A stretch of DNA of 64,000 nucleotides from Desulfovibrio sp. (GCA_050251775.1 JBFWMD010000009.1:6647-70646); one strand, 5' to 3'. Shown: positions 3,063 through 39,551, counted from the stretch's first letter. Notes: generated from the sequence alone by a model not told the origin. Translations and numbers: made by a program.

Positions 3063-4106
3063 ATGAAAAAAACGCGAGAAGAATGTCTGGCTGCGCTTCG
3101 CGACACACCGCCCATCCTGGCCGGGCAGAAATTCGTTGTGGACGATTTCCGGCCTGAGGATGCCCTGGGCATTGCCCGGCTCTACTACGCTGTGTACGGA
3201 GAGGGATTTCCCGTGGACAGCGTGTACGATCCGGAAGAGATGATCCGTCTCAACGCGGCAATGGAGTTGCATCAGGTCGTGGGGCGTGCGGAAAACAACG
3301 ACGTGGTCGGACTCTACGCGATGTTCCGCAATGCTCCGGGCCGCAGGATCATGGAAGCGGGTTCCTGGATCGTGCATCCCGACTACCGGACCACTTCGCT
3401 GGCCCTGCGGCTGGCCAAGCGCATCCACCTCAAGCCGCCAGAGCGGCTCGGGCTGCACGTCATCTCGGGGCAAAGCGTCTGCGACCACGTCATCTCTCAG
3501 AAGATGAGCGTACTTTTCAAGGCCATGAATCTAGGCCTGGAGGTCGAAGCCATGCCGCCCAGACCAGAGGGGGAAGCGCAGTGGTGCGACGGCAGGATTT
3601 CACTGCTCGACCAGTTTCTCGTGCCAAAGGATCGGCATCAGGAGGTCTACCTGCCGGAGCGCTATGCAGCCTTCCTTCGGAGCCTGTACGAAAAACACGG
3701 ATTGGGGAGGGATTTCCCTGTGGACCAGCGCCCCGGCATGAAGGAGACGGCGTCATCCCTCCTGCGCGTGGAACAGGCCTCCCTGGTCCGGATGACGGTG
3801 ACGCGGGTCGGGGAAGACTTTCCGCTTTGCCTGAGCGCGGCCCTGGGTGAGCGCCCGGAAGGCCATGTGGACCAGCTGGTGCTTTCCCTTGCGGCTCCAG
3901 GGGGCTCCATGGCTGTGGAGCACGCCAGGAAGGCGGGATTTTTTATCGTCGGACTGCTGCCCGGCTGGTTCGATCACGACGGCTTCATGATGCAGCGGCT
4001 GGCCTGCGCACCGGACTGGGCCGCCATCCATGTGCACACGGATGATGCCAAGGCGCTGCTGGAAGCAGTGCGGGCGGACTACGAAACGTTGGAAAACCGT
4101 GGATAA
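3063..4106 (+). CDS. GNAT-domain protein (347 aa, N-terminal acetyltransferase fold plus uncharacterised C-terminal half)
   Basis: ATG at 3063. The N-terminal ~150 aa look GNAT-like (FRPEDALGIARLYY..., WIVHPDYRTTSLALRL). The C-terminal half is not recognised. Confidence 0.65.
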   Translation: MKKTREECLAALRDTPPILAGQKFVVDDFRPEDALGIARLYYAVYGEGFPVDSVYDPEEMIRLNAAMELHQVVGRAENNDVVGLYAMFRNAPGRRIMEAGSWIVHPDYRTTSLALRLAKRIHLKPPERLGLHVISGQSVCDHVISQKMSVLFKAMNLGLEVEAMPPRPEGEAQWCDGRISLLDQFLVPKDRHQEVYLPERYAAFLRSLYEKHGLGRDFPVDQRPGMKETASSLLRVEQASLVRMTVTRVGEDFPLCLSAALGERPEGHVDQLVLSLAAPGGSMAVEHARKAGFFIVGLLPGWFDHDGFMMQRLACAPDWAAIHVHTDDAKALLEAVRADYETLENRG

Positions 4107-4113
4107 CACGCCG

Positions 4114-4998
4114 TCAGGATGCGGGCTTTGGCTGGACGCGCAGCAGATGCATGTTCGGCAGGACAATGCCCGCCACAACCAGTATCATGCCCGCCACGTT
4201 GAGCAGGCGCAGCGATTCGCCCAGAATCAGCCAGGAGGCCAGCACCGTGGTCACGGGTTCCACTGTGGAGAAGATCGAGGCAAAGGGACTGCCGATGAGT
4301 TCCACGGCCTTGTAGAGAAAGATCACGGCCACGATGGTGCAGACCAGCCCGAACCCGGCGGCCACGAGCAGGCAGTGGGGCGAGAGTTCCAGGATGGTGG
4401 TGGGTCCGCCCGCCAGCACGGAATGCACGCAGCCCGCAAAGGAGATCAGGTAGAAGGTCAGGGTCAGGGGGTTCTCGCCCTTGAGCAAGTGCTGCACCGT
4501 GGTGAGATAGAGGGAAAAAATGATCATGGAGACCACGGAAAGCAACAGCCCGGTGGAGTCCATGCGCGCGCTGAAGGCTTCATAGAACACCAGGCAGCAG
4601 CCCAGGGTCACCAGAGCCAGGGAGGCCACCGTGGCTCTGGTGACGGGCTGGCGGTAGATCACGGCGCAGAGCAGCGTGACCGTCACGGGGTAGAAATAGA
4701 GAATCAGGGTGGGCACGGCCGCCGGCACGGTGCGCACCGCGCTGATGAAGCACCAGGACTGGATCGGATAGAAGAGAAATCCGAGAATGGCGGCCTTGAA
4801 CAGGGTGCGCGGGCCGGGCCGGAGTGCGGAAGGATTGGTGAGCAGCAGCCAGACCAGGAGCATCAGCGCGGCAAAGAAGAAGCGATACTGGAGCATCTCG
4901 AACACGCCCATCTCGCAATCATAGCCGAGCCTGCCGAAAATGGGCAGAAACCCGAAGGCAATAGCGGAAATGACGGAATAGACCAGACCGCGCAGCAT
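4114..4998 (-). CDS. EamA/DMT family transporter
   Basis: 294 aa with ~10 hydrophobic helices and two EamA-like halves (SAIAFGFLPIF...; STVEPVTTVLASWLILGE). Confidence 0.85.
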   Translation of the reverse strand: MLRGLVYSVISAIAFGFLPIFGRLGYDCEMGVFEMLQYRFFFAALMLLVWLLLTNPSALRPGPRTLFKAAILGFLFYPIQSWCFISAVRTVPAAVPTLILYFYPVTVTLLCAVIYRQPVTRATVASLALVTLGCCLVFYEAFSARMDSTGLLLSVVSMIIFSLYLTTVQHLLKGENPLTLTFYLISFAGCVHSVLAGGPTTILELSPHCLLVAAGFGLVCTIVAVIFLYKAVELIGSPFASIFSTVEPVTTVLASWLILGESLRLLNVAGMILVVAGIVLPNMHLLRVQPKPAS

Positions 4999-5148
4999 GT
5001 TTCCTCCTCGCCCGCCGGGTCGGAAGGGAATACGACCGGACTACGCGGAATGCAATAATAAAACGCAAAACCATGCTCGCGGCGTAACAAATTGCCGCTG
5101 GTCCCGTTGCCCAGACGCTTCGAGCTGCAAAGCGGCGGACGGCTGTCG

Positions 5149-6297
5149 TCAGGACTTCCGGCAGAGACCCGAGGCCAGAAGCACGGCCACGCCGAGCACG
5201 CCGAGCAGACAATAGATGAACACGTTCCAGCCGAAGGAATGGTAGATGAATCCGGGCACAAAGGACCCCAGTGCGCCGCCCGCATAGTAGAAGGCGATGT
5301 ACAGCCCGTTGACCACGCCTTTGTGCTCTGTGGAGCGTGCGTTGACAAAGGCCGGACCCACGGTCTGGATCAGGAAGAAGCCCGCGCAGAAGGGAATCAG
5401 CGCCACGAAGACGAGCAGGGTGTTCGGCGTGAGGCAGGCGGCCACGGAAACACTGAAAAAAGCCAGGCCCAGGAGAAAAGCGCGGCCTTCCCCGCCAAGG
5501 AAGGAGACAATGCGCGGCGCGGTCAGGGAAGTGGCCACGCCCACAAGGTAGCTCAGATACATGGTCCCGGCTCTGCCCGGAGAAACGCCCCCGGCCAGTT
5601 CGGCCAGCCGGAAGGGCAAATAGTTCAGCGTGGCCTGAAAGGCGAAAAAGCAGCAGAAGATCATGGAATAGGCCCGCAGGAACGACGGCTTGGCCAGGGC
5701 CGCGCGCACGTGCGCCACACGGGCGCGCTCAAAGCCCGGCGCATCCCCGCCTTGCACCCGCCCCAGCAGGAAGAAGGCCGCGAAAACCAGCACCCCCAAC
5801 ACGGCAAAAGGCACGCGCCAGCCCCAGGCCTCGGCCAGGATGCCGGAAAAAAAACGGCCCGAAAACCCGCCCACAATGGTGGTGGAGATGTACCAGGACA
5901 TGACCCGGCGCATGCGCTCCGGCGCGCACTTGCTGGCCAGCAGGGTCATGACCGAGGTCAGGGCCGCGGGAATGGCCAGCCCCTGGACCAGCCGCGCGGC
6001 CAGCAGCACGTTCCAGGAGGGCGAGAAAAACACGGCCACATGGCCCAGCCCCACCACCAGCACGGCCCAGCGGGCCAGTTTCGCGGCGGGCAGCGATTCC
6101 AGCAGCAGCCCGTAGAGCACCGGGGCAAAGGCCAGCGGCAGCAGGGTCATGGTCACGGCCAGGGACGCGGCGGCCTTGCTCAGGCCGAATTCCAGCGCGA
6201 ACACGGGCAGCAACGGCTGGGGCACGTAGAGGGTGGCGATGGCACAGGCAGTGGCGAAGAGCGTGGTCGCCAGGGTAAGACGTTCGGCGCGGGTCAA
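5149..6297 (-). CDS. MFS transporter (YnfM-like)
   Basis: ORF 5149..6519. N-terminus LYVPQPLLPVFALEFGLS is typical of the YnfM group. Proposed TTG start at 6297 is preceded by GGAG. The upstream part of the ORF is non-MFS read-through. Confidence 0.75.
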   Translation of the reverse strand: MTRAERLTLATTLFATACAIATLYVPQPLLPVFALEFGLSKAAASLAVTMTLLPLAFAPVLYGLLLESLPAAKLARWAVLVVGLGHVAVFFSPSWNVLLAARLVQGLAIPAALTSVMTLLASKCAPERMRRVMSWYISTTIVGGFSGRFFSGILAEAWGWRVPFAVLGVLVFAAFFLLGRVQGGDAPGFERARVAHVRAALAKPSFLRAYSMIFCCFFAFQATLNYLPFRLAELAGGVSPGRAGTMYLSYLVGVATSLTAPRIVSFLGGEGRAFLLGLAFFSVSVAACLTPNTLLVFVALIPFCAGFFLIQTVGPAFVNARSTEHKGVVNGLYIAFYYAGGALGSFVPGFIYHSFGWNVFIYCLLGVLGVAVLLASGLCRKS

Positions 6298-14829: not shown

Positions 14830-14941
14830 TCTTCTCCCCTGATTCGTGATCCCTTTCGCGCCATTGCCCGGCCAGAGACTACCCTCCCGCTCCGAAAAGG
14901 CAAGCGCGCGTTATTATCCCCTCCTATCAAGCAGAAATTCA

Positions 14942-14974
14942 TCACAATTGTCATCCTCCCCAGTTGCCATGGCA
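14942..14974. promoter_or_regulatory. two short palindromes in the coaX / cydA-like divergent promoter region (candidate operators)
   Basis: TCACAATTGTCA (14942-14953, 10/12 symmetric) and the perfect 10-mer TGCCATGGCA (14965-14974), 60-95 nt upstream of the ATG at 15037. Confidence 0.25.
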
Positions 14975-15036
14975 TGACGGCTGGGATATGCAGCCAGAGA
15001 TAGGGAGTCCCTGCACAACAGAGAGGAGAGAGCCGA

Positions 15037-16089
15037 ATGGACCCGACAACGTTGATCCCCATGGTGGACCCGATCCCGATTCCGGGGCCGTGGTTCGATG
15101 TTCTGCTTGTGGCCACCTTCGTGGCCCACATCCTGTTCATGAACGTGGCCGTGGGCTGTGCGGCCATCAGCCTCACCGGCCATTTCAACACTTCCGGGGA
15201 AGGGCTTTCCCGCACGCTTTCAAAGCGCATGCCCACCATCCTGGCCCTGACCATCAACCTGGGAGTGGCCCCGCTGCTCTTCCTCCAGGTGGTCTACGGC
15301 CAGTTCGACTACACCAGTTCCGTGCTCATGGCCGGCTACTGGCTGGCGGTCGTCGGACTGCTTCTGGCCGCCTACTATGGCCTGTACATCTACGATTTCA
15401 AATTCGAGGCCCTGGGCAAGGGCCGGGTCCTCTTGCTGCTCGCCAGCCTGGGCATGATGCTCTGGATCGGGTTCATGTTCTCCAACAACATGACCCTGAT
15501 GCTCCGGCCCGAAAAGTGGCTGGACTACTTCAAACTTGAGGGCGCGTCCTTCCTGAACCTGGACGACAGGAGCATCTATCCCCGTTACCTGCACTTCATG
15601 GTCGCGTCCCTGGCCGTGGGCGGCCTCTTTGTGGCGCTCTCGGGCCACTTCGCCAAGGACGGCGCGCGCGTCGCCACGGGCATGAAATGGTTCTTCCGCG
15701 CCACCCTGGTCAACCTTCTGGTGGGTGTCTGGTTCCTGATGTCCCTGCCGCAGCCGATCATGCTCAAGTTCATGGGCGCAAGCCCCCTGGCCACGGCTTT
15801 GCTGCTCGCGGGCCTTGCCGGGGCGCTCGGCCTGGTCTGGGCCGGGTTGCGCCAAAAGCCCCTGGCCGCCGCGGTGCTCACCGTGCTCACCGTGGTCTTC
15901 ATGGCCATCACCCGGCACAACCTCCGGGCCTTTTACCTGGATCCCTGGTTCAAGTCCTCGGAACTGCCCATCACCGGAGAGTACTCCACACTGATGCTCT
16001 TCCTGTTCTTCCTGGCCGTGGGCCTGCCCTGCGTGGTCTGGATGATCCGCATCTACATCCGGCCCGAGAACGCTGAAGGAGACGTGTAA
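15037..16089 (+). CDS. polytopic membrane protein, CydA-like (cytochrome bd subunit-I-like) partner subunit
   Basis: 350 aa with ~8-9 TM helices. The TM1 His motif ATFVAHILFMNVAVG resembles CydA LTAMYHFLFVPLTLG. The stop overlaps the next start (TAATG). Confidence 0.6.
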   Translation: MDPTTLIPMVDPIPIPGPWFDVLLVATFVAHILFMNVAVGCAAISLTGHFNTSGEGLSRTLSKRMPTILALTINLGVAPLLFLQVVYGQFDYTSSVLMAGYWLAVVGLLLAAYYGLYIYDFKFEALGKGRVLLLLASLGMMLWIGFMFSNNMTLMLRPEKWLDYFKLEGASFLNLDDRSIYPRYLHFMVASLAVGGLFVALSGHFAKDGARVATGMKWFFRATLVNLLVGVWFLMSLPQPIMLKFMGASPLATALLLAGLAGALGLVWAGLRQKPLAAAVLTVLTVVFMAITRHNLRAFYLDPWFKSSELPITGEYSTLMLFLFFLAVGLPCVVWMIRIYIRPENAEGDV

Positions 16090-18701
16090 TGGAATATCCC
16101 ATCTGGCAACTCACGACCCTGGGTGGCGGTTTCTGGATCGCCCTGATCGCCACCGTACACGTCTATGTGGCCCAGTTCGCCGTGGGCGGCGGTCTGTTCC
16201 TGGTGCTCACCGAGCGCTACGCCTACCGGCAAAATTCTCCGGACATCCTCGAATACGTCCGCAAGCATTCCAAATTCTTCCTGCTGCTGACCATGGTCTT
16301 CGGCGGAGTCACGGGCGTGGGCATCTGGTTCACCATCGCCCTGCTCTCGCCCCAGGCCACCATCACGCTCATCCACCACTTCGTCTTTGGCTGGGCCTCG
16401 GAATGGGTCTGCTTCCTGGGCGAGATCGTGGCCCTTCTGGTCTATTTCTACGGCTGGAAACGCCTTTCCCGCGAACAGCACATGGCCGTGGGCTGGCTCT
16501 ACTTCATCTTTGCCTGGCTCTCGCTCTTCCTGGTCAACGGCATCATCGGCTACATGCTCACGCCGGGCGACTGGACCCAGACCGAGCGCTTCTGGGACGG
16601 GTTCTTCAACCCCTCGTTCTGGCCGTCCCTCGTGTTCCGCAGCTTCCTCTCCTTCATGATCGCGGGCCTGTTCGGCTTTCTCACGGCCACGCGCATCCAG
16701 GACGAGGAGGCCCGCACCCGCATGGTGCGCGTCTGTGCCCTCTGGACCCTGGCCCCGTTCGCCCTCTTCCTGCTCTCGGGCTGGTGGTACGTGGCCGCGC
16801 TGCCCGAACCTCAGCACACCCTGATGGTGGCCAAATCGCACCGCGTTTCCGTATTCTTCCACTACTTCTGGGCCTTCTCGCCCCTGGTGGTCCTGGGCGG
16901 ACTGCTCATGGCCGTGCGCCTGCCACGCTCCATCTCGTTCCCGGCGGCCTTTGTCATCCTGGCCCTGGGTCTGGGCCTGGCCGGTTCCTTCGAGTTCATC
17001 CGCGAGGCGGGCCGCAAGCCCTATCTGATCTGGGACGAAATCTACTCCAACTCCATCCTGCGGGTGGAAGCCCAGAGCATTAACGACACCGGAGCCATTG
17101 CCCGCTCCAAATGGGCACCGCCGGGCCTCGACCCCGTGGCCGCCCCCCTGGAGGCAGGCAAATTCCTCTTCCAGCTGGAATGCGCGAGCTGCCATTCCAT
17201 TGCCGGACCCATGAACGACATCCTGCCGCGCACGGCCAAGTTCTCGCTCACGGGCATGGACGCCATGCTCGACGGCCTGGGCAAGGTCAATCGCTATATG
17301 CCTCCCTTCCTGGGCACACTCGACGAGCGCAAGGCCCTGGCCGCGTATCTCGTCGAGGGGTTGCACGGCAGAATCGGCGAGGAAAACCTGCCCTTCGAGG
17401 AAGTGGACCTGCCCCTGGACATCCCGGTCAAGAACGACGAATACGTGCTCCTGGCCTGGAACAATCTGGGCATGCACTGCATCTCCGACTCGGACCGCAA
17501 CTGGGTGCTGCTGCCCCCGGCCAACGACCTCTTCGCCCAGCTCGTGAAGCGCGGCGACCCGCCGACCCTGGTCACGGAAGGCGTGACCCTGAGCTACCAG
17601 GTCCAGTCGGAATTCGCGGACGCCGCAGCCCATTCGGAATTCTGGGACTACGCCCAGGCCATCTTCGGCCTGCCCGCGCCCCTGGAGAGAAACGTGGGCC
17701 TCGCGGGCAACGGACTCTCCGGCGAGATGAAGCCGGAGCAGGAGGCGGGCTGGTACGAGGCCAAGCTTGTGCCGGTCGTGCCCTACCCCGACGACATGGA
17801 CTACAACCCCTACCCGCTCTTCACCATCCAGGCGCACGACACCTCGGGCAAGCTCCTGGCCGAGACGCGCATCGTGGCCCCCACCTCCACGGAAATGGGC
17901 TGCAAGAACTGCCACGGCGGCCCCTGGAAGGTGGGCGGACTCGCGGGCATCTCCAACGAGACGGGCCGCGACGTGATCAGCGTGCACGACCGCATGAACG
18001 GCACGGATCTGGTCAAGCGCGCCGAATCCGGCAAGCCCGTGCTCTGCCAGAGTTGCCACCCCGACCCGGTGCTCGGGGCCAAGGGCAATCCGGAACTGCT
18101 GAACCTGCCTGCGGCCCTGCATGGCCTGCACGCCCAATACCTCACAAACCGGGGAGCCGAGGCCTGCGCCTATTGCCACCCGAACCGCGACAATGGACCG
18201 ACCCGCTGCCTGCGTGGCCGCCACGCCGACTTCGCCACCTGCACGGACTGCCACGGCGCCATGGAAGACCACGCCATCTCCCTGCTCAAGGCCGAGGAGG
18301 GCAAGAAGGGCCGCGATCTGCTGCTCAGCCAGATCAAGCCCCGCAGCGTCAAGCTCGTGGACGACATCACCGGTCGCACCCCCTGGCTGAACGAACCCGA
18401 CTGCCTGAACTGCCACGTGGGCTTCGCGGATCCCGGCCTGGACGCTTTCAACAAGTGGACCGAGGGAGGCGACAAGCTCTACCGCAACCGCCACGACGAC
18501 ATGGGCGTCATTGCCTGCGCGGGCTGCCACAACAGCCCCCACGCGGTTTACCCCGCGCGCAACAGCTACGGCGCGGACCGCGACAACATCCCGCCGCTCC
18601 AGTTCCAGGGCGAGGCCGGAACCATGGGCACGGGCGGCGGCTGCATCTGCCATACCGTGAAGCCGGACTTTGGCGCGCACCACGAGAACCAACTGCAATA
18701 G
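16089..18701 (+). CDS. CydA-like membrane domain fused to a multihaem c-type cytochrome domain (7 CXXCH)
   Basis: The N-terminal ~330 aa align by eye to E. coli CydA helices 1-5 (ATVHVYV, GGVTGVGIWF, ASEWVCFLGEIV, YFYGWKRLSREQHM). CXXCH motifs start at aa 365, 605, 653, 693, 718, 772 and 810, and a CICH lies at aa 852. Confidence 0.8.
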   Translation: MEYPIWQLTTLGGGFWIALIATVHVYVAQFAVGGGLFLVLTERYAYRQNSPDILEYVRKHSKFFLLLTMVFGGVTGVGIWFTIALLSPQATITLIHHFVFGWASEWVCFLGEIVALLVYFYGWKRLSREQHMAVGWLYFIFAWLSLFLVNGIIGYMLTPGDWTQTERFWDGFFNPSFWPSLVFRSFLSFMIAGLFGFLTATRIQDEEARTRMVRVCALWTLAPFALFLLSGWWYVAALPEPQHTLMVAKSHRVSVFFHYFWAFSPLVVLGGLLMAVRLPRSISFPAAFVILALGLGLAGSFEFIREAGRKPYLIWDEIYSNSILRVEAQSINDTGAIARSKWAPPGLDPVAAPLEAGKFLFQLECASCHSIAGPMNDILPRTAKFSLTGMDAMLDGLGKVNRYMPPFLGTLDERKALAAYLVEGLHGRIGEENLPFEEVDLPLDIPVKNDEYVLLAWNNLGMHCISDSDRNWVLLPPANDLFAQLVKRGDPPTLVTEGVTLSYQVQSEFADAAAHSEFWDYAQAIFGLPAPLERNVGLAGNGLSGEMKPEQEAGWYEAKLVPVVPYPDDMDYNPYPLFTIQAHDTSGKLLAETRIVAPTSTEMGCKNCHGGPWKVGGLAGISNETGRDVISVHDRMNGTDLVKRAESGKPVLCQSCHPDPVLGAKGNPELLNLPAALHGLHAQYLTNRGAEACAYCHPNRDNGPTRCLRGRHADFATCTDCHGAMEDHAISLLKAEEGKKGRDLLLSQIKPRSVKLVDDITGRTPWLNEPDCLNCHVGFADPGLDAFNKWTEGGDKLYRNRHDDMGVIACAGCHNSPHAVYPARNSYGADRDNIPPLQFQGEAGTMGTGGGCICHTVKPDFGAHHENQLQ

Positions 18702-18827: not shown

Positions 18828-18871
18828 AAGGCCGGTGCGGAAAGAATCCGCACCGGCCTTGCTCGTTTTTT
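18828..18871 (+). terminator. rho-independent terminator (bidirectional position between convergent genes)
   Basis: 14-bp perfect stem AAGGCCGGTGCGGA / TCCGCACCGGCCTT, followed by GCTCGTTTTTT. Confidence 0.75.
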
Positions 18872-18882
18872 CCAAGGGCGCG

Positions 18883-19479
18883 CTACTGGGCGTCCAGTAT
18901 CTCGACCACAGCCGCGCCGAACTTTTTGGCCGCTTTGGGGCCGTTGCCCGTGACCAGCTTGCCGTCCACGACCACACTGCCTTTCTTGTAGTCGCAGCCG
19001 TTTTCCTTGAGAATCGCCGGGCCGGACCAGCTGTCCGCCACAGTGGCCTGCCGCCCCTGCAGCACGCCCGCCTTGGCCAGGGCCACGGGGGAGTAGCAAA
19101 TGGCCCCGAGGACCTTGCCCTGCTCCATGGCCTCGCGGGCGATGCGCTGGGCCTCGGGCCGCTCCACCAACGTGCGCGAGCCCTTGCCCCCGATGAAGAC
19201 CACGGCGTCATAGTCGGCCACGTTCACCTCGGCCAGGGTCAGGTCCACCTCGACTTTTTTGCCGTTCTGGCCTTTGGCCGTGCCCATTTCCGCGGCGGCC
19301 ACGGAAACGATCACGCCCGCATCGTCCAGTTTGGCGCGCGTGTCTTTGTATTCGGTGTCTTCAAAACCGTTGTAGGTGACGACCATCACGGCCTTCTTGC
19401 CCTGGGTTTCCGCCAGGGCCGGCAAGGAGCAGACAAAGCAGAGCAGGAACAGGAACAGACAGGACAGCATTCGCTTCAT
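18883..19479 (-). CDS. DJ-1/PfpI family protein with signal peptide
   Basis: Internal Met MKRMLSCLFLFLLCFVCSLPALA follows GGAGAC. Nucleophile-elbow-like GAICYSP. Confidence 0.85.
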   Translation of the reverse strand: MKRMLSCLFLFLLCFVCSLPALAETQGKKAVMVVTYNGFEDTEYKDTRAKLDDAGVIVSVAAAEMGTAKGQNGKKVEVDLTLAEVNVADYDAVVFIGGKGSRTLVERPEAQRIAREAMEQGKVLGAICYSPVALAKAGVLQGRQATVADSWSGPAILKENGCDYKKGSVVVDGKLVTGNGPKAAKKFGAAVVEILDAQ

Positions 19480-19655
19480 GGTGGGGTCTCCTTGTTGCGT
19501 CCGCATCGGACAATGCAAAAAAAGTTTCCGGCTTCGTTAGCAGCACACAACAGAAAATTCAATCTTTCTTGAGCCTGGGCGCAGCGCTTCCTTCCCGCCG
19601 TTTTTTTGCGTATCCTGCCGAATCACATCACAACCGACAGGAGACGAACAGGCTC

Positions 19656-21360: not shown

Positions 21361-22317
21361 ATGGAACTCTACCAGCTTCGCACTTTTGTGGCCGTGGCCG
21401 AGGAAAAACACCTCACCCGCGCTTCGGAACGACTTTTCGTCAGCCAGCCCGCTGTCAGCGCCCACATCAAGGCCCTGGAAAAAGAGCTGGGGGTCAAGCT
21501 TTTCCGGCGCACAGCCAGGGGCATGGAGCTGACGCGCGAGGGCGACGCCCTGAAACCCAAGGCGGACGCGGTTCTGGCCTCGGCCAGAGAGCTGCTCTAT
21601 CTGGCGCGGGCCATGGGCAACGAACTGGTGGGCAACTTCAAGCTGGGGCTGAATACGGATGTGGATTTTTTGCGGCTCAATGCGCTGCTCTCCTGTATGA
21701 TGGAAAAGCACCCGCGCGTGGCCGTGACTCTGCTGCACTCCACGTCCGCGCGCATCGCCGAGCAGGTGGCCGCGGGCAACTGGGACGCGGGTTTTGTGTT
21801 CACGCCCCCGCGCTACCCCGAGCTGGCCGCCATGCCCCTGTTCACCTTCCGGCTCTTTGTGGCCGGGCACGAAAAATTCCAGGCCGATCTCCAAAACGCG
21901 GGCTGGCCCGAGCTGGCCAAACTGCCCTGGATCTGGACCACGGCCAACTGCCCGTACCACCGGCTGGTGCGCAAAATCTTCGACGGACACAACCTCAGCC
22001 CGTCGCAAATCATCGAGGCGGACAGCGAAGCCGTGGTGCGCTCGCTGCTCAGCGCGGGCAAGGGTCTGGCCCTGCTGCGAGAGGATGAGGTGGAGACCCT
22101 TTCCCGGTTGGGAGGGCTGGCGGTCTGGCCCGGCGAATCCCACGAGGTCCAGGCCTATTTCGTCTACCTGCTCTCCAGGGAAAAGGATCCCATGATCCGC
22201 GCGGTGCGCCACTGCGTGGCCGAAATGTGGGAAGGGGCGCGGCTCGCCCCCCTGCGCGAAAAGCAGGATGAAACTCCCGACCCGCAGCCCTCAGAAACGG
22301 AGTCCCCGGGAGACTGA
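21361..22317 (+). CDS. LysR family transcriptional regulator
   Basis: MELYQLRTFVAVAEEKHLTRASERLFVSQPAVSAHIKALEKELG, plus a LysR substrate-binding domain. Confidence 0.9.
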   Translation: MELYQLRTFVAVAEEKHLTRASERLFVSQPAVSAHIKALEKELGVKLFRRTARGMELTREGDALKPKADAVLASARELLYLARAMGNELVGNFKLGLNTDVDFLRLNALLSCMMEKHPRVAVTLLHSTSARIAEQVAAGNWDAGFVFTPPRYPELAAMPLFTFRLFVAGHEKFQADLQNAGWPELAKLPWIWTTANCPYHRLVRKIFDGHNLSPSQIIEADSEAVVRSLLSAGKGLALLREDEVETLSRLGGLAVWPGESHEVQAYFVYLLSREKDPMIRAVRHCVAEMWEGARLAPLREKQDETPDPQPSETESPGD

Positions 22318-22341: not shown

Positions 22342-22527
22342 CTAGTGCAGCTGGCCGATGCCAATGGAGCCGAGAATGGACATGGCCACCCAGAACACGG
22401 CCTTGGTCCTTCCGGCGCGCACCTGCGCCGCCCGGCTCCAGCCCCGCAGAAGCAGCCGCGTCAGCCGGTCCGAATCCTCGACGCCCACGATGAACAGTCC
22501 AAGGTCTCTGAATTCCCGTGCGTTCAT
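22342..22527 (-). CDS. small single-TM protein (61 aa), paralogue of 20947..21114
   Basis: Internal Met of ORF 22342..22662 preceded by AGGAGGAG. Sequence is MNAREFRDLGLFIVGVEDSDRLTRLLLRGWSRAAQVRAGRTKAVFWVAMSILGSIGIGQLH. Confidence 0.5.
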   Translation of the reverse strand: MNAREFRDLGLFIVGVEDSDRLTRLLLRGWSRAAQVRAGRTKAVFWVAMSILGSIGIGQLH

Positions 22528-22604
22528 GCGCTCCTCCTTGCTTGCGGTTGCTGCTGGTTTCCCGATTTCAGCCGCACCATAGCCCGTTGTCCGTCTCGGC
22601 ATCC

Positions 22605-22643
22605 AATCGCATTGTCCGAAGCAGGGGTTCGGAATATCCGATT
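22605..22643. promoter_or_regulatory. 39-bp dyad in the small-ORF/LysR divergent region (candidate LysR operator)
   Basis: AATCGCATTGTCCGAA-GCAGGGG-TTCGGAATATCCGATT. 13 of 16 arm positions are symmetric, including the perfect TCCGAA/TTCGGA and AATCG/CGATT pairs. Confidence 0.35.
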
Positions 22644-22676
22644 GTGCATCCGTGCGAATCATCGTATGCAGAGTGC

Positions 22677-23615
22677 GTGGAACTCTATCATCTGCGCACC
22701 TTTGTGACTGTGGCCGAGGAAGGCCATCTGACCCGTGCGTCCGAGCGGCTGTTCATCAGCCAGCCCTCGGTGAGCGCGCACGTCAAGGCCCTGGAGGAGG
22801 AGCTGGGCTTGCCGCTCTTCCGTCGGACACCCAAAGGGATGCTGCTCACTCCGGAGGGCCGGGTGCTCCTGGAGCACGCCCGCCAGGCCCTGGACGCGGC
22901 CGGCGGCCTGCTCTTCAAGGCCAGAAGCCTGCGCCGCGAGGTGCGCGGCACGTTGCGCCTGGGCCTGAACACGGATTCCGTGTTCCTGCGCGTCAGCCGT
23001 CTGGCCGCGCTCCTGGACCAACGCCACCCCCAGGTGGAGTTGAGCCTCAACACCAGCGTCACGGGCCGGATCATGGAGGCGTTGCGGGCCGGCAGTCTGG
23101 ACGCTGGATTCGTCTTCCACGAATCCGATCCCGTGGAATTCTCCTTTTTGCGGCTCTGCTCCTTCCGGCTGCTGATCATGGGTCCGGCCGTCTGGCGCGA
23201 ACGCATTGAACGCGCGGGCTGGGCGGAATTGGCCCGGCTGCCCTGGATCTGGACCCCGCCGCACTGCCCCTGCTACCAGCTCGGCGAGGAAATGTTCAAA
23301 CGCCGCAAGCTGAACCTGACCAAGACCATCGAATCGGATAACGAAAGCGTGGTCAACGACCTGATCATCGCGGGCAAGGGGATCTCCCTGGTGCGCGAGG
23401 ATGACGCCCGGACCGCCGAAGCCGCCGGACTGATGGTCCGCTGGCCGCGCGAGGCCATTCCCCTGCACGCCTATCTCGTTTCCCTGCCCTCCCGGGCCGA
23501 CGACCCCCTGCTGGTGGCTCTGCGTTCAGCCGTGGCCGATGTCTGGAAACCAGAGTCCGAAAACGTCTGCGAGGACGCGCTTGCGGACCCCCTCCGGGGC
23601 GCGACCCCGGCCTGA
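22677..23615 (+). CDS. LysR family transcriptional regulator (paralogue of 21361..22317)
   Basis: GTG start gives VELYHLRTFVTVAEEGHLTRASERLFISQPSVSAHVKALEEELG, collinear with the first LysR, including LPWIWT..CP. Confidence 0.85.
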   Translation: MELYHLRTFVTVAEEGHLTRASERLFISQPSVSAHVKALEEELGLPLFRRTPKGMLLTPEGRVLLEHARQALDAAGGLLFKARSLRREVRGTLRLGLNTDSVFLRVSRLAALLDQRHPQVELSLNTSVTGRIMEALRAGSLDAGFVFHESDPVEFSFLRLCSFRLLIMGPAVWRERIERAGWAELARLPWIWTPPHCPCYQLGEEMFKRRKLNLTKTIESDNESVVNDLIIAGKGISLVREDDARTAEAAGLMVRWPREAIPLHAYLVSLPSRADDPLLVALRSAVADVWKPESENVCEDALADPLRGATPA

Positions 23616-33657: not shown

Positions 33658-34473
33658 CTATTCCACCAGAACACTGTACTTCAGCGCATAGCAGTCCCCG
33701 GTTTCCTTAATGACATAGCTCATCATGTCGTAAACATATATATCGCTCTTTATGGTCATGCCGGCGGACACGATTTTTTCCAGCATTCCCGCAAGGGCCT
33801 GCCGATGCGTTTCTTCCGTTCCTTTATGAGCCAGGATGGCGCATCTCCCTTCAGGTTTGACGTGAAACCGGGAACGCGGAGTGGTGCGCCGCGCCCGGTG
33901 GAAGGAATAGCGCTCAAGGTGGTTGCCCCGGCGCACGTCATCCAGGCCGATAATAAAACCGAACGGAGAACGAGGCTTTTGCTCCTGCTTTTTATAGGCA
34001 TCGTTGAACTCGGCAAAACGCTGGACAAGGTCCCACCGTGATTCGGGCGAGGATATCCCGGAGGGCGTCACTTCCAGACGTTCTTCTTCCTGCTGCTCAA
34101 CGATCAATACGTCGTAGTCGAAATTCAGGGCTTCGCGCAGACACTCGGCCATGTCCCCGAGTACAAGCGTCCGCTGTCTCAGCCGGTTCAATTCCCTCTG
34201 GGCGACAGCCTGCTTCTCCTCCAGGAAGGACAAGAAACTCTCGCCATCCATCTGGCGTAAATGCGTTTTAATTTCTTTCAGCGAACTGCCAACATCCTTG
34301 AGCATCGAGAGCAGTTCAAACTCAAAATACTGCTCTATCTCGTAATGCCGATAGCCGTTTTCAGAAACGTGCTTTGGTTTCAGCAGCCCTTCCTTGTCGT
34401 AAAACAGCAGCGTACCTTTTGCTGTTCCGCACAACATTGCGAACTCACCAGTCGTAAGTAAATGTTTTTTCAT
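33658..34473 (-). CDS. MerR family regulator with GyrI-like effector domain (BmrR/Mta type)
   Basis: Internal Met MKKHLLTTGEFAMLCGTAKGTLLFYDKEGLLKP, a coiled-coil linker, and a C-terminal ~150 aa effector-binding-like domain. GC is low. Confidence 0.85.
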   Translation of the reverse strand: MKKHLLTTGEFAMLCGTAKGTLLFYDKEGLLKPKHVSENGYRHYEIEQYFEFELLSMLKDVGSSLKEIKTHLRQMDGESFLSFLEEKQAVAQRELNRLRQRTLVLGDMAECLREALNFDYDVLIVEQQEEERLEVTPSGISSPESRWDLVQRFAEFNDAYKKQEQKPRSPFGFIIGLDDVRRGNHLERYSFHRARRTTPRSRFHVKPEGRCAILAHKGTEETHRQALAGMLEKIVSAGMTIKSDIYVYDMMSYVIKETGDCYALKYSVLVE

Positions 34474-34486
34474 GTTTATTTTTATG

Positions 34487-34517
34487 TTGACTCTAAAGTT
34501 ACTGTATACCTTACCCT
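34487..34517 (+). promoter_or_regulatory. candidate MerR-type promoter of the efflux operon (19-bp spacer)
   Basis: TTGACT (34487-34492), a 19-nt spacer, then TACCCT (34512-34517). The over-long spacer is the hallmark of MerR-activated promoters. It sits between the divergent regulator and the pump genes. Confidence 0.4.
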
Positions 34518-34582
34518 CGCACACAGTGAATAAAACAGCAAGCCGGCATTTGCCTGCGCCGGTCAATACAGAGGTGTCTCAA

Positions 34583-35824
34583 ATGGTTTGGGGTATCGGG
34601 AAGAAAAAAAGATGGCGGGTGCTCATACCGCTTTGTTGTATTTTGCTTGTGACGGGCTGCGACACAGCGGAGCAACCCAAGGACGCGCCTGGCGAGGTGC
34701 TGTATTCAGTGGTCCGCAAAGAAAAGCTTACTTTGACCAGCACGTTGCCCGGGCGGGTTTCCGCGCTTGTAACGGCGGAAGTCAGACCCCAGGTAGACGG
34801 CATCATCCTTGAGCGCCTGTTTGAGGAAGGCGCGGATGTGGAAAAAGGGCAGGTTTTGTACCGCATCGATCCTGGCGTCCACCAGGCCGCCTATGCCACG
34901 GCCAGGGCATCCCTTTTGGAGGCGCAAGCCAATGTGGAGGCTGTCGCCCTGCTGGAGAAACGCCAGAGGCTTTTGAGCTCCCAAAATGCCTTGAGCCGCC
35001 AAGAACTGGACAACACCATTTCCCAGCTCGGCCAGGCCCGTGCCCGTGTCGCCAGGGCTGAAGCCGAATTGAAAGCCGCCGCCATCAATCTTGCCTACAC
35101 GGAAATCAAAGCGCCGGTGTCAGGGCGTATCGGGGCTTCTTCCGTGACTGTCGGCACTCTGGTTACGGCAAATCAGCCCACCGTTCTTGCCGTCATCCAG
35201 CAGACGGATCGCGTCTATGTGGATATAACGCAATCCAGCACGGATACCATTCGATTGCGCCGCGCCATGGCCCAGGGCCGGTTGGCTCCCAACGGCAGCG
35301 CGGCCAAGGTTCGTCTTACCCTTGAAGACGGCTCGCCGTACACAGCGATAACACGGGAACAGACGGATGGAGAACCTGAATGGATATTTGGTGATCTGCT
35401 GTTTTCGGAAATATCCGTCGGGCAAAGCACGGGAAGCCTCATGCTGCGGGCCGTGTTCAACAACCCGGACAGACTGCTTTTGCCTGGAATGTACGTGAAG
35501 GCAATCATCGAGGAGGGCGCGGTAGAAAACGCGGTGCTGATTCCGCAAGGTGTTGCGTTTGCGAACAACACCGGCGGGCACTCTGTCTACGTTTTGCGCG
35601 GCGATGATGCCGGAGACGGACTTTTCCGGGTTGAGCGGAGAGACGTGCGGCTTGAACGCGCGTCCGGCAACCGTTGGTTGGTCGGTTCCGGCCTGAATAG
35701 CGGTGACATTCTGATTGTCGAGGGACTTCAGAAGGCCGCTTCCGGTGAACTTGTCAAAGGCGTTCCCGCGCGGAACGCCCCGGACGAAGCCGTGGCCATG
35801 GCTCCTGAAAGGAAGGAGCGGTAA
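34583..35824 (+). CDS. RND efflux periplasmic adaptor (membrane fusion protein)
   Basis: ATG at 34583 follows GAGGTG. Lipobox LLVTGC. Hallmark YTEIKAPVSGRIG. Confidence 0.9.
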   Translation: MVWGIGKKKRWRVLIPLCCILLVTGCDTAEQPKDAPGEVLYSVVRKEKLTLTSTLPGRVSALVTAEVRPQVDGIILERLFEEGADVEKGQVLYRIDPGVHQAAYATARASLLEAQANVEAVALLEKRQRLLSSQNALSRQELDNTISQLGQARARVARAEAELKAAAINLAYTEIKAPVSGRIGASSVTVGTLVTANQPTVLAVIQQTDRVYVDITQSSTDTIRLRRAMAQGRLAPNGSAAKVRLTLEDGSPYTAITREQTDGEPEWIFGDLLFSEISVGQSTGSLMLRAVFNNPDRLLLPGMYVKAIIEEGAVENAVLIPQGVAFANNTGGHSVYVLRGDDAGDGLFRVERRDVRLERASGNRWLVGSGLNSGDILIVEGLQKAASGELVKGVPARNAPDEAVAMAPERKER

Positions 35825-35827
35825 CTC

Positions 35828-38800
35828 GTGGCAGCGTTCTTCATCAATCGTCCTATTTTTGCCTGGGTTATCGCCATCGTCATCATGCTGGCCGGGGTGC
35901 TTGCCTTGGGCCGGCTTCCGGTGGCCCATTATCCGGACATAGCCCTGCCGCAGATATCTGTTTCCGCGCAGTATCCCGGCGCGTCCGCGCCCATCGTTGA
36001 CCGGAGCGTAACGCAGGTTATCGAGCAGCAACTCAAGGGACTGGACAACCTGCTACACATGGACTCCTCCAGTGGCTCTTCCAGCGGTTCGGAGATTAAT
36101 CTCACTTTCGCGGCCGGAACGGATATAGACACTGCACAGGTTCAGGTACAGAACAAGTTGCAGCAAGCCATGTCCCTGCTGCCTGAGGCGGTACAACGGC
36201 AAGGAGTTCAGGCATTCAAGGCCGTTGAGAACTCCTTCATGACCGTTGCTTTTTATGATGCGCATGACACGATGCGGTCCAGCGATATCAGTGACTTTGT
36301 GGCGAGTGCCCTCGTCGATCCCTTAAGCAGGATTCAGGGAGTGGGGTCCGTCACTCTCTATGGTTCTCAGAATGCAATGCGCATCTGGTGCGATCCTGAC
36401 AAAATGCGGCAGTACGGACTGAATCCCCAGGATGTTCTGACCGCTGTACGCGAACAAAACGCTCAGGTCGCAGGCGGACAGGTGGGTGAATCGCCAGCCG
36501 CACCCGGCCAGGAAATCAACATTGCCATCAACGCCTCATCCAGCCTGGAAACGGTGGAGGAGTTTGAGCAAATACTCCTGCGCGTGGAAGAGAACGGGTC
36601 CGCTCTGTTGCTCAAGGACGTAGCCCGCATCGAACTGAATGAAGAAAGCGCCACTGGCGGCACGTTCTTTAACGGCCACTCGGGAACTGGATTGGCGTTC
36701 AAGCTTTCCTCCGGGGCCAATGTCCTGGAAACCACCCAAGCCATCAAAGCTGAATTGAAAGCCCTTGCCGCCTTCTTCCCGCCGGGGCTCACTTTCGCCT
36801 ATGCCGACGACAAGGCTCCCATTGTGGAAAAATCCATACAAGCAGTGGTGCACACTCTTCTTGAGGCCATAGCCCTGGTCGTGGCGGTAATGTTTTTGTT
36901 TTTGCAAAGCTTCCGCGTCACACTCATTTCCGCCATCGCTGTTCCGGTCGTTCTGCTCGGCGTGTTCGCGGTGCTTGCTGTGGCCGGTTTTTCCATCAAC
37001 ACGCTGACCATGTTCGGGATGGTTCTGGCTATCGGTCTGTTGGTTGATGATGCCATTGTCGTGGTGGAAAACGTGGAGCGCCTGATGCGCGAGGAAAAGC
37101 TCTCCGCCAGGGAAGCCGCGCTTAAATCCATGCGCCAGATAACCGGGGCGCTTGTCGGTGTTGCCGTGGTTATTTCCGCCGTGTTTGTACCCATGGCCTT
37201 CATGCCTGGTTCAACCGGCGCTATTTTCAGACAATTTTCCATTACCATCGTTGCCTCCATGGTGCTTTCCGTTGTTGTCGCCATTGTGCTTACACCGGCC
37301 TTGTGCGCCACCATCCTGGCCGCAAAAGCGAACAGAGCGGATACAGGCTTGCTCGGCAGATTCAACCGGTGGTTCGACACGCTCACTGGACGGTACGCCA
37401 GCCAGGTGGGCGGCATAGTGAAACGGCCCAAAACGTGGGCGACCACCGTCGTATTGTTGGTCGCGATGTGCGCGGTGTTGTTCTTGCGCCTGCCGCATTC
37501 CTTTTTGCCCGACGAAGACCAGGGAATCTTGTATGTCGATGTGCAGCTCCCACCCGGCGCGTCACAGGAGCGCACAGAAAAAATAGTTAAAGAAATCGAC
37601 ACATATTTTCGTACCGAGGAAAAGAATGCCATCCAAAGCGTCATGTCGGTCGTCGGCTGGGGATTCAGCGGTTCCGGCCAGAATTCAGCCATGGTCCTTC
37701 CCTTGCTAAAGGATTGGAGCGAACGGGGCCGGGGGCAAAGCGCTTTTGATGTTATGGCGCGAGCCTCCTCCCGCTTCTCGTCCATCCACGGCGCTGAAAT
37801 CGTTGTTATGACGCCACCGGCGGCCATGGAACTCGGTACGTCCTCAGGCTTTGAAATGGAGCTGATGGATCGCGGCGGAAGCGGCCATGCGGCACTGCTC
37901 AAGGCCAAGGACGCCCTGTTGGAAGACGCCGCGAAACAGCCCTCCGTTTCCTACGCCCGCTATGGCGGAATGGATGACGCTGAGCAGTATGACCTCGTAA
38001 TCAACAATGGCAAGGCAGGCGCATACGGCCTTTCCAGAGGCGACATCAACAGCGCAATCAGTGCATACTGGGCGGGTGAGTATATCAACGACTTCTCGGA
38101 CCGGGGCAGAACGAAGAAGGTGTATTTCCAGGCAGAACCGTCGTTTCGGACCGGCGTGGACGACTTCAACCGGTTTTATCTGCGCAACGCCAAAGGTGAA
38201 ATGGTGCCGTTCACCAGCTTTCTTGCTGTGAAGTCCATTCTCGCCTCGCCCAGCCTGACGCGCTACCAAGGGATTCCATCCATGAAAATCGAAGGGGCCG
38301 CAGCTCAGGGGAAAAGCTCCGGGCAGGCGATGATGGAAATGGAAGAAAGTGCGGCCAAACTTCCTTCCGGCTTTGACTATGCATGGACGGGCCTTTCGTA
38401 CCAGCAGCGGATGGCCTCCAATCAGGCTCCACTCCTGTACGCCATTTCCATCATCGTCGTCTTTCTGAGCCTTGCGGCGTTGTACGAAAGCTGGACGATC
38501 CCGCTGGTGGTGCTCATGGCGGTTCCCACCGGTGTACTTGGGGCGTTGTGCGGTGTGTACATTCGCGGCATGAACAACGACATCTATTTCCAGATAGCTC
38601 TGCTCACCATCATCGGCCTTTCCGCCAAGAACTCCATCCTCATAGTGGAATTCGCGAGAGTTTTACATCATGGAGGAAAAGACCTGCTCACGGCCACCGT
38701 GGAAGCTTCACGTCTCCGCTTGCGGCCCGTGCTCATGACTTCGCTGTGCTTCATTCTCGGCGTTGTGCCTTTGGCTGTCAGCAGCGGAGCCGGTTCCGGT

Positions 38801-38926
38801 GCGCAAAACGCTCTTGGAACGGCGGTAATGGCGGGCATGATCACGGCAACGGGGCTCGGTGTTTACTACACACCGCTGTTTTTCGTTTTGGTGACGCGGT
38901 TTTTTGGTCGAAAAAACGAATCATGA
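35828..38926 (+). CDS. RND multidrug efflux permease (AcrB/HAE1 type)
   Basis: 1032 aa beginning FFINRPIFAWVIAIVIMLAG, with 12 TM helices and two large periplasmic loops. Confidence 0.95.
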   Translation: MAAFFINRPIFAWVIAIVIMLAGVLALGRLPVAHYPDIALPQISVSAQYPGASAPIVDRSVTQVIEQQLKGLDNLLHMDSSSGSSSGSEINLTFAAGTDIDTAQVQVQNKLQQAMSLLPEAVQRQGVQAFKAVENSFMTVAFYDAHDTMRSSDISDFVASALVDPLSRIQGVGSVTLYGSQNAMRIWCDPDKMRQYGLNPQDVLTAVREQNAQVAGGQVGESPAAPGQEINIAINASSSLETVEEFEQILLRVEENGSALLLKDVARIELNEESATGGTFFNGHSGTGLAFKLSSGANVLETTQAIKAELKALAAFFPPGLTFAYADDKAPIVEKSIQAVVHTLLEAIALVVAVMFLFLQSFRVTLISAIAVPVVLLGVFAVLAVAGFSINTLTMFGMVLAIGLLVDDAIVVVENVERLMREEKLSAREAALKSMRQITGALVGVAVVISAVFVPMAFMPGSTGAIFRQFSITIVASMVLSVVVAIVLTPALCATILAAKANRADTGLLGRFNRWFDTLTGRYASQVGGIVKRPKTWATTVVLLVAMCAVLFLRLPHSFLPDEDQGILYVDVQLPPGASQERTEKIVKEIDTYFRTEEKNAIQSVMSVVGWGFSGSGQNSAMVLPLLKDWSERGRGQSAFDVMARASSRFSSIHGAEIVVMTPPAAMELGTSSGFEMELMDRGGSGHAALLKAKDALLEDAAKQPSVSYARYGGMDDAEQYDLVINNGKAGAYGLSRGDINSAISAYWAGEYINDFSDRGRTKKVYFQAEPSFRTGVDDFNRFYLRNAKGEMVPFTSFLAVKSILASPSLTRYQGIPSMKIEGAAAQGKSSGQAMMEMEESAAKLPSGFDYAWTGLSYQQRMASNQAPLLYAISIIVVFLSLAALYESWTIPLVVLMAVPTGVLGALCGVYIRGMNNDIYFQIALLTIIGLSAKNSILIVEFARVLHHGGKDLLTATVEASRLRLRPVLMTSLCFILGVVPLAVSSGAGSGAQNALGTAVMAGMITATGLGVYYTPLFFVLVTRFFGRKNES

Positions 38927-39020
38927 ACAAGCCCCGGCCTCACCGTCGGTTTCCGGCACATATTGCGGAACGCAGCTCGCGGATGCGGAAAATAGATTGC
39001 CGGGATGGAGGATATCCATT

Positions 39021-39551
39021 GTGACAGGATTCGAAACGGAAAGGCTGCTTATACGAAACTTTGAGACCAAAGATGCTGAGGGGCTGTTTGCTTACCTTTC
39101 TCATCCTCGTGTGAATTGTTTCCTTATGGAACAAGTCAGTACGCTGGAGGAGGCCGCTGCCGATGTTGAGTGCAGAAGCAAGGAGGAATTGCGCTTTGCC
39201 GTTTGCTTGAAGGAAACGGACGTCATCATCGGAGAGGTGTTCGCCATTAAAGAAGAGCCAGACACCTATGGCGTGGGATGGATTCTCAACGAGCAGTACG
39301 AGGGAAAGGGATACGCAAGCGAAGCGGCAAGATGGTTCCTCGATTATCTGTTCACAAGCAGGAATGCAAGGCGGATTTATGCCTATGTGGAAGAGGATAA
39401 TGTCCGCTCGCAGAAACTCTGTAAGCGCCTCCATATGCGCCGGGAGGGACTTTTCCTCGAGTTCGTATCTTTTACAAACAATCCCGATGGCACTCCGAAA
39501 TACGAAAACACATTCGTCTATGCCATCTTGAAAAAGGAGTGGGAATTATGA
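39021..39551 (+). CDS. GNAT family N-acetyltransferase (RimJ/RimL-like)
   Basis: GTG at 39021 lies 7 nt after GGAGGA. Segments ETERLLIRNFE..., GVGWILNEQYEGKGYASEA. Confidence 0.8.
   Translation: MTGFETERLLIRNFETKDAEGLFAYLSHPRVNCFLMEQVSTLEEAAADVECRSKEELRFAVCLKETDVIIGEVFAIKEEPDTYGVGWILNEQYEGKGYASEAARWFLDYLFTSRNARRIYAYVEEDNVRSQKLCKRLHMRREGLFLEFVSFTNNPDGTPKYENTFVYAILKKEWEL

Follow-up and report, generated by a model that had tools for sequence, protein, structure and literature searches.

Two adjacent genes in a stretch of Desulfovibrio sp. DNA (GCA_050251775.1 JBFWMD010000009.1:6647-70646) encode a pair of membrane proteins that almost certainly belongs to the OR-C1 group of the cytochrome bd superfamily and that probably forms a two-subunit, quinone-independent oxygen reductase fed by cytochrome c, serving either O2 defence or micro-oxic respiration. 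We refer to the whole 64,000-nucleotide (nt) stretch as the window and count all nt positions from its start. The pair consists of genes A and B, laid out as follows:

15037-16089, + strand: gene A, an open reading frame (ORF) for a 350-residue integral membrane partner (OR-C1b type)
16089-18701, + strand: gene B, an ORF for 870 residues (OR-C1a type), its stop codon ending at 18701
16087-16091, + strand: the sequence TAATG, in which the A stop and the B start overlap

The first-pass annotation, an earlier reading made from the sequence alone, had described two coupled genes, and both ORFs and the overlap were found as it claimed. The overlap is consistent with translational coupling of A and B. 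The two proteins are the orthologues of OR-C1b (A) and OR-C1a (B), an architecture that is not new and was already named and catalogued in 2021.

That catalogue divided the bd superfamily into qOR, OR-C and OR-N (Murali, Gennis and Hemp, 2021, bioRxiv 10.1101/2021.01.16.426971). Members of OR-C have no quinol site and carry haem c motifs; the paralogue OR-C1b is encoded beside OR-C1a, and up to eight CXXCH motifs occur in Desulfovibrionia (Murali et al., 2021). The OR-C1a reference in Table S6 of that study, from D. senegalensis (WP_151150981.1), has F183 at the His186 position together with H24, E105, E112, S145, H131, Y119, Y121, V77 and W80, and the table gives '-' for the E445 counterpart. 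All of these reference residues are conserved in B at identical numbering. Table S7 lists dozens of eight-haem proteins, such as Dde_0291, DGI_4051, Dbac_2631 and THEYE_A0176, and gives haem-free 'hypothetical protein' neighbours as the OR-C1b of several, Dbac_2631 and THEYE_A0176 among them (Murali et al., 2021).

The likeness to bd oxidases is clearest in the N-terminal part of B, the features of which all lie on the + strand:

16089-17030: B residues 1-314, CydA-like membrane domain with eight transmembrane helices (PF01654 match and AlphaFold2 (AF2) model)
16158-16160: B His24
16401-16403: B Glu105
16422-16424: B Glu112
17004-17006: B Glu306
Further key residues of B: Phe183/Arg184 (former b558 His position), Glu302, Arg305 and Arg309

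B matched the PF01654 profile (Cyt_bd_oxida_I) with E = 2.5e-14 and 53.1 bits (cut-off 26.2) over residues 17-244, corresponding to profile positions 6-243 of 418. The profile check proposed for both proteins in the first-pass annotation was thus significant for B, at about twice the cut-off, and left A without any Pfam match. The AF2 model of B, built from a 75-sequence alignment, reached a predicted local distance difference test (pLDDT) score of 88.6 and a predicted TM-score (pTM) of 0.85, and resolved into eight long helices (residues 14-309), a small helical domain at the first haem motif, a beta-rich part (~445-600) and a compact multihaem region. Foldseek searches with this model returned CydA chains as the top 10 matches (E = 1e-7 to 6e-6, target TM-score 0.51-0.69) and CydB chains next, the top 20 being bd oxidase subunits throughout. 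In the alignment to Geobacillus CydA (5doq_A), His24 of B falls on His21 and Glu105/Glu112 on Glu101/Glu108. Together with the PF01654 match, this alignment bears out the likeness to CydA that had been read by eye from the histidine of the first transmembrane helix and from the acidic pair. The two glutamates of B are spaced Glu105-x6-Glu112, the short six-residue spacing of OR-C1a.

The quinol-related part of CydA fared differently in B. The position of the b558 ligand His186 is occupied by Phe183, next to the invariant Arg184; the earlier statement that an arginine stands here was right in that the histidine is missing and one residue off in the replacement. A second earlier claim was that a soluble domain replaces the whole half of CydA that includes the Q-loop and Met393. 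The Q-loop and helix 9 are indeed lost, but helices 7-8 are retained, since helix 7-8 segments isolated from B orthologues (residues 240-335) match PF01654 on their own: 17 of 24 diverse sequences did so at profile positions 306-384, with a best E of 1.6e-5, and no other family was matched by more than two of the 24. The profile is thus matched at positions 6-243 and 306-384 and unmatched at ~244-305. A weak second alignment stretch also places REAGRKP of B on the AEVGRQP motif of Geobacillus CydA. We regard Glu306 of B as a supported, not proven, counterpart of the CydA Glu378/Glu445 haem ligand, because the helix 7-8 profile used alone found no match in the PDB.

Conservation points to the same residues. 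In a set of 83 B orthologues from many phyla, His24, Glu105 and Glu112 were present in 82 of 82 sequences, and Glu302, Arg305, Glu306 and Arg309 in all 83. Loops 1-2, 3-4, 5-6 and 7-8 of B are rich in Arg and Lys. Combined with the eight transmembrane helices, these loops predict, by the positive-inside rule, that both termini of B and its haem c domain are periplasmic, as cytochrome c maturation requires.

Protein A required a less direct route, for it had no match in Pfam or NCBIfam at E <= 1 and no sequence relative in the PDB, whether searched as a single sequence or as a profile. In sequence it is closer to the CydA-like domain of B than to any solved chain: hhalign compared the profile of the A family with that of the B membrane domain and gave a probability of 92.5 % (E = 4.8e-7), and at a permissive setting residues 1-323 of A were colinear with 1-326 of B, about 320 residues in all. 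The AF2 model of A (pLDDT 82, pTM 0.82) contains eight helices and, with lower confidence, a ninth C-terminal helix at residues 317-341. The top 15 PDB matches of this model in Foldseek were all bd oxidase subunits, both CydA and CydB, with TM-scores of about 0.5-0.67. In some UniRef entries the A orthologue is called 'Polysulphide reductase NrfD', a name left unsupported by the Foldseek ranking, in which the best NrfD-like chain (ACIII ActF, 6btm_F) stood far behind the bd subunits, at rank 16 with a TM-score of 0.40. The same difference in scores rules out the unrelated NrfD/PsrC-like fold that the first-pass annotation had itself named as a counter-finding. A is, then, a CydA-like paralogue with the bd-subunit fold, neither a canonical CydB nor NrfD-like, in agreement with the earlier proposal of a CydA'-type partner that lacks the acidic pair.

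The residues kept in A complement those kept in B. Three invariant positions of A map to the + strand as follows:

15127-15129: A His31
15592-15594: A His186
15901-15903: A Met289 (helix 8)

In the alignment of the two proteins, His31 of A pairs with His24 of B, Glu105 and Glu112 of B fall in gaps of A, and Ala298 of A pairs with Glu306 of B. Conversely, His186 of A occupies the b558 histidine position, where B has Phe183. Among 77 A orthologues, His31 was conserved in 75 of 75 and Arg183, His186, Met289, Arg293 and Arg297 each in all 77. The haem ligand positions are therefore distributed in a complementary way between the two subunits, and the invariant His186 and Met289 hint that A may bind a haem b. 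No CXXCH motif was found in A, nor in the best 150 of the 2056 clusters (50 % identity, E <= 1e-3) of its family. The relatives listed by the library profile search for the A family were close ones only. The sequence of A recurs unchanged (100 % identity) in a "Desulfovibrio sp." metagenome-assembled genome and with 85 % identity in Paucidesulfovibrio longus.

Electrons would enter the pair through the C-terminal part of B, again encoded on the + strand:

17121-17378: B residues ~345-430, class-I-like monohaem cytochrome c unit (CASCH at residue 365, nt 17181-17195; candidate axial Met404 in YMPPF)
17421-17888: B residues ~445-600, conserved domain rich in beta strands and free of haem motifs (WNNLGMHCISDSD...LLPPANDL), from AF2 strands and conserved columns
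17889-18701: B residues 601-870, multihaem c block, from motifs and PF14522
17901-17915: CXXCH at residue 605
18045-18059: CXXCH at residue 653
18165-18179: CXXCH at residue 693
18240-18254: CXXCH at residue 718
18402-18416: CXXCH at residue 772
18516-18530: CXXCH at residue 810
18642-18653: shortened CICH motif at residues 852-855, haem site 8

The seven CXXCH motifs and the terminal CICH were located exactly where the first-pass annotation had listed them. Its description of the first unit as class-I-like is weakly supported by the window protein alone, in which PF13442 matched residues 354-421 below the cut-off (E = 2.7e-4), but agrees with the orthologues, in which Cys365, Cys368 and Met404 are conserved in 83 of 83 and His369 in 82 of 83. 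The beta-rich domain sits between this unit and the multihaem block; it had no Pfam family and no sequence relative in the PDB, and Foldseek gave it only insignificant beta-sandwich matches. The multihaem block found no informative match in the PDB either. By profile, the C-terminal half of B matched PF14522 (cytochrome c7-type) with E = 3e-8, with weaker MtrC/MtrF and c3-like matches. Eight near-invariant histidines outside the motifs (633, 678, 681, 712, 728, 818, 864 and 865) are candidate distal ligands, which suggests that the first haem c could have His/Met and the other seven bis-His ligation. As there are enough candidate ligands for all eight sites, none of the c haems is obviously free to act in catalysis, and the haem c chain of B would serve as an electron wire rather than as a catalytic haem c.

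Counting seven haem c sites plus an odd CICH proved misleading, because the family has eight sites. Eight CXXCH motifs are present in 112 of the 120 closest homologues, and the last of them aligns with the CICH of the window. CXCH at site 8 occurs only in the clade of the window protein (P0001-P0005, P0012, P0013 and L023 in our set, 58-90 % identical to B); being common to a clade, it is a deletion of one residue that has been kept, rather than an error of sequencing. The Ccm system handles engineered CXCH sites poorly. Site 8 may represent a natural haem c motif with a single spacer residue or a site that lost its haem.

The pair is widespread and travels without companions. B relatives numbered 3560 at E <= 1e-5 among 8000 candidates scored, and a scan of one genome per species recovered them in at least 593 GTDB species. 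They are found in Desulfovibrionales, Desulfobacterales, Desulfobulbales and Desulfuromonadales, and also in Bacteroidota, Planctomycetota, Calditrichia, KSB1, Krumholzibacteriia and others. Most full-length homologues of ~880 residues are named "cytochrome ubiquinol oxidase subunit I", and OR-C1 is routinely mis-annotated in this way. In 79 loci the sequence reached far enough upstream to look for A, and in 78 of these an A orthologue immediately precedes B, mostly at a spacing of -3, 0 or +4 nt. Clustering of flanking ORFs revealed no conserved third gene (donor, maturation factor or regulator), for no flanking gene recurred in more than nine of 84 loci. The nine-locus clusters were coaX and eno, the window's own housekeeping neighbours in local synteny; shadow ORFs of A and B accounted for the larger clusters. 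The pair is a self-contained two-gene module, and the constant pairing of A with B with no other conserved neighbour agrees with an enzyme that works on its own and draws on soluble donors. Elsewhere the neighbourhood differs: a Desulfobacter has a c3-type cytochrome at a distance of 2.5 kb, and Malonomonas has ABC transporters. Only one annotated locus had an oxidative-stress context: in Pseudodesulfovibrio portus (L001 8738-11551) the pair stands beside the catalase-peroxidase gene katG (PF00141) and a gene for a Fur-family regulator.

Little has been published on these proteins beyond their naming. Our searches of the literature with the OR-C family names and twelve locus tags of cultured carriers found no biochemical or genetic study and one proteomic mention, SMUL_0150; the first-pass statement that bd clades with fused haem c had been catalogued and not characterised holds for the literature searched, in which no biochemistry followed the naming of OR-C1a and OR-C1b in 2021. 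The OR-C profile is already in use as a marker of O2 reductases in comparative genomics. SMUL_0150 is a one-haem OR-C1a homologue of Sulfurospirillum multivorans whose abundance in fermenting cells was about 8 times that in respiring ones and had risen 39.5-fold once cells were adapted to pyruvate (PMC6242987, Table 2). This is the sole expression datum that the searches returned for any OR-C protein.

From these features we propose how an A-B complex of the OR-C1 type would operate. Periplasmic carriers, which in Desulfovibrionaceae would be the cytochrome c3 pool that hydrogenases and formate dehydrogenases supply with electrons, would reduce the haem c chain of B. Electrons would then pass to the membrane haems, with A possibly contributing a low-spin haem b on the way. 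O2 would be reduced to water within helices 1-4 of B, at a high-spin haem in a pocket formed by His24 and Glu306, with protons drawn from the cytoplasm along a Glu105/Glu112 path.

On balance, we judge O2 slightly more likely than not to be the physiological substrate of the pair. The residues invariant in B coincide exactly with the ones by which the oxygen site and the proton path of characterised bd oxidases are defined. Moreover, one-haem OR-C members occur in Hydrogenobacter, Chitinophaga and Lysinibacillus, which are aerobic or microaerophilic genera, and the katG and Fur-family context of the P. portus locus hints at a role with O2. Several points weigh against an oxygen reductase, in addition to the helix 7-8 profile that matched nothing in the PDB and so leaves the Glu306 assignment short of proof. 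The activity is extrapolated from conserved residues. The eight-haem form is concentrated in strict anaerobes. The rise of SMUL_0150 in anoxic pyruvate fermentation indicates that expression needs no O2 (PMC6242987). Finally, the pair has no consistent link to oxidative-stress genes, and its flanks are usually housekeeping.

A more specific version of the oxygen reductase, which we put forward tentatively and consider rather unlikely in its entirety, assigns the haems to the two subunits. Here the three-haem set of cytochrome bd would be split: B would hold the catalytic di-haem pocket (His24, Glu105, Glu112 and Glu306) and A a low-spin haem b, through His186 and possibly Met289, that relays electrons from eight c haems to the active site; the CXCH of site 8 would be a natural attachment motif with a single-residue spacer. 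If so, the pair would link periplasmic oxidation of H2 or formate directly to O2 reduction in 'strict' anaerobes, independently of quinones. The 'hypothetical' A would then be a haem-carrying relay and not, as it has been treated so far, a cofactor-less substitute for CydB.

The alternative that survives best retains the complex and its electron path, with the high-spin haem pocket reducing or detoxifying, in place of O2, a different small molecule that arrives at the periplasmic membrane face (H2O2, NO or nitrite, for example). The conserved pocket residues show that a bd-type haem site is kept and not which substrate it serves, and canonical bd oxidases interact with NO and have side activities of a peroxidase or catalase type. 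The richness of the family in strict anaerobes, the one locus with catalase-peroxidase and Fur-family genes and the induction of the one-haem homologue under anoxic fermentation (PMC6242987) could all be accommodated by such an oxidant. Still, the 84 loci revealed no conserved association with genes for nitrogen oxides or peroxide, and the Glu105/Glu112 path and the His and Glu haem ligands make up the very set by which O2 reduction is defined in all characterised bd oxidases. We consider another oxidant unlikely.

Less likely still is a role as a quinone-linked conduit instead of a terminal reductase, comparable in function to Qrc, CbcL or ImcH. The b haems would then pass electrons between the menaquinone pool and the periplasmic multihaem chain, one way or the other, and would feed or drain periplasmic or extracellular redox partners. 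The weak matches of the seven-haem block to MtrC/MtrF, NrfH and c7 models would suit this function, as would the presence of the family in Desulfuromonadales, in a strain named ferrireducens and in D. ferrophilus. The two invariant histidines and the invariant methionine of A could likewise coordinate a low-spin haem b of the kind that a relay across the membrane would have. However, B has lost the bd-type quinol site (the Q-loop, together with His186 and Met393 of one and the same subunit), and the invariant pocket residues serve O2 chemistry and proton delivery, which a plain relay would not need. The aerobic genera with one-haem members are also not known to reduce metals. The last alternative, that the N-terminal domains have an NrfD/PsrC-like or other polytopic fold and that the Pfam match is spurious, could appeal to the 'NrfD' names in UniRef and to the missing Pfam match of A, and is refuted as practically impossible by a PF01654 score of twice the cut-off for B, by Foldseek rankings that reject it for both proteins (bd subunits as the top 20 for B and the top 15 for A, no NrfD-like chain above a TM-score of 0.40) and by the colinearity of A with B.

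The regions that flank the pair in the window contain the following elements:

14830-15036, + strand: upstream intergenic region, divergent from coaX, with GGAGAG resembling a ribosome-binding site just before the A ATG and two short palindromes
18828-18870, + strand: terminator-like hairpin (18828-18860; 14-bp stem with 10 G-C pairs) followed by a T-run
18883-19518, - strand: DJ-1/PfpI family gene, convergent and downstream, with an N-terminal signal-like hydrophobic stretch
21361-22317 and 22518-23615, + strand: two consecutive ORFs resembling LysR-type regulators, ~2.7 kb downstream of the pair

The hairpin lies 127 nt past the B stop, between B and the convergent DJ-1/PfpI gene. The DJ-1/PfpI gene and one of the LysR genes are also present in a syntenic relative (L085), in which a DUF1508 gene that the window lacks separates DJ-1/PfpI from B. 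Annotated genes at about 11.7-23.6 kb were eno, SBP, coaX, DJ-1/PfpI, an aminotransferase gene and the LysR regulators. Neither cydX nor cydDC was among these genes, the part of the window screened for them, and A has no PF02322 match at E <= 1, so that the earlier report of no cydB, cydX or cydDC nearby stands for that region.

The palindromes upstream of A, at 14942-14974, had been proposed as operators, and we rejected this proposal. The sequences are ACAATTGT at 14944-14951 and TGCCATGGCA at 14965-14974. Both are short and occur at background frequency: the window has 3.05 perfect 8-mer and 1.17 perfect 10-mer palindromes per kb, and one of each length is found in 5.6 % of 207-nt windows. 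In the syntenic relatives L085 and L086, with 90 % protein identity, both palindromes are broken and become GAGAATAT and TGCCAGGAAA. Furthermore, no sigma-70-like site was found on the + strand of the upstream region.

Elsewhere in the window, scans for Rfam families and tRNAs returned no match. The stretch 34472-39551 has a G+C content of 0.55-0.56, against about 0.64 elsewhere, and encodes an RND efflux system (an HlyD-type adaptor and a 1032-residue pump of the AcrB family) and a GNAT acetyltransferase; this stretch may stem from horizontal transfer. Just past it, at 39567-40574, the - strand encodes a protein with a weak match to teneurin YD-shell. The composition profile also revealed an unusually high AT skew (0.36) at 4001-6000, where no tandem repeat was found. 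In this region the + strand ORF 4030-5058 translates into a low-complexity protein rich in Gly, His, Gln and Glu, and looks like the shadow of the - strand ORF 4114-4998.

At oxic-anoxic interfaces, sulfate reducers and other "strict" anaerobes not only survive O2 but also respire it, by routes that include a quinol bd oxidase, a haem-copper oxidase and the cytoplasmic rubredoxin:oxygen oxidoreductase. OR-C1 is a third candidate for O2 reduction in the membrane, widespread as it is, through which electrons of the periplasmic cytochrome c pool would reach a bd-type site with no quinone involved. Its substrate, once shown, would close a gap in the bioenergetics of Desulfobacterota and provide a test of bd chemistry driven by haem c. 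A-B is an ordinary member of OR-C1, and the question stays worthwhile at the level of the family; the window locus adds nothing beyond cultured carriers such as D. alaskensis G20, D. gigas and Desulfomicrobium baculatum. Its value is confirmatory, with three small refinements at the residue level: Glu306 and helices 7-8 are kept in B, the b558 histidine position is kept in A (His186), and CICH is a clade-specific deletion.

Compared with the systems already described, the pair is closest to OR-C1a and OR-C1b themselves. It shares with them the CydA-like domain of eight transmembrane helices without a quinol site, the periplasmic C-terminal domain with up to eight CXXCH motifs, the adjacent paralogous membrane subunit without c-type haem and the home in Desulfovibrionia. 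The clade of the window differs in having CXCH instead of CXXCH at the eighth site. In addition, we propose Glu306 where the published table has no E445 counterpart for OR-C1a, and the model of A has a ninth C-terminal helix, of lower confidence, where eight helices are described for OR-C1b.

Both subunits share the fold of canonical CydAB (E. coli 6rko/6rx4, Geobacillus 5doq and M. smegmatis 9r2g), and A-B would likewise form a heterodimer of two related 4+4-helix subunits. B keeps His24, Glu105, Glu112 and Glu306, equivalent to His19, Glu99, Glu107 and Glu445 of E. coli. Unlike CydA, it has no Q-loop, no helix 9 and neither of the haem b558 ligands, His186 and Met393, and it has no CydB partner of the PF02322 family. 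Electrons would enter A-B through covalent haem c, whereas quinol supplies them in CydAB.

The second subunit is also a CydA paralogue in archaeal CydAA' (qOR4a/qOR4b, as in Caldivirga maquilingensis), one that kept the histidine of the first transmembrane helix and lost the proton-channel glutamates. In contrast to B, qOR4a still has its quinol site and b558 ligands and carries no haem c, and qOR4b lost the His186 position (A190) that A retains. The OR-N proteins, the 'bd-like oxidases' of Nitrospirota and others, resemble A-B in lacking a quinol site, but have 10-14 helices and no fused haem c and are encoded in operons with alternative electron-donor modules, whereas A-B stands alone as a pair. 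Their 'b'-type partners keep the His19 and His186 positions and lost the glutamates; this pattern, not tabulated for OR-C1b, is the pattern of A.

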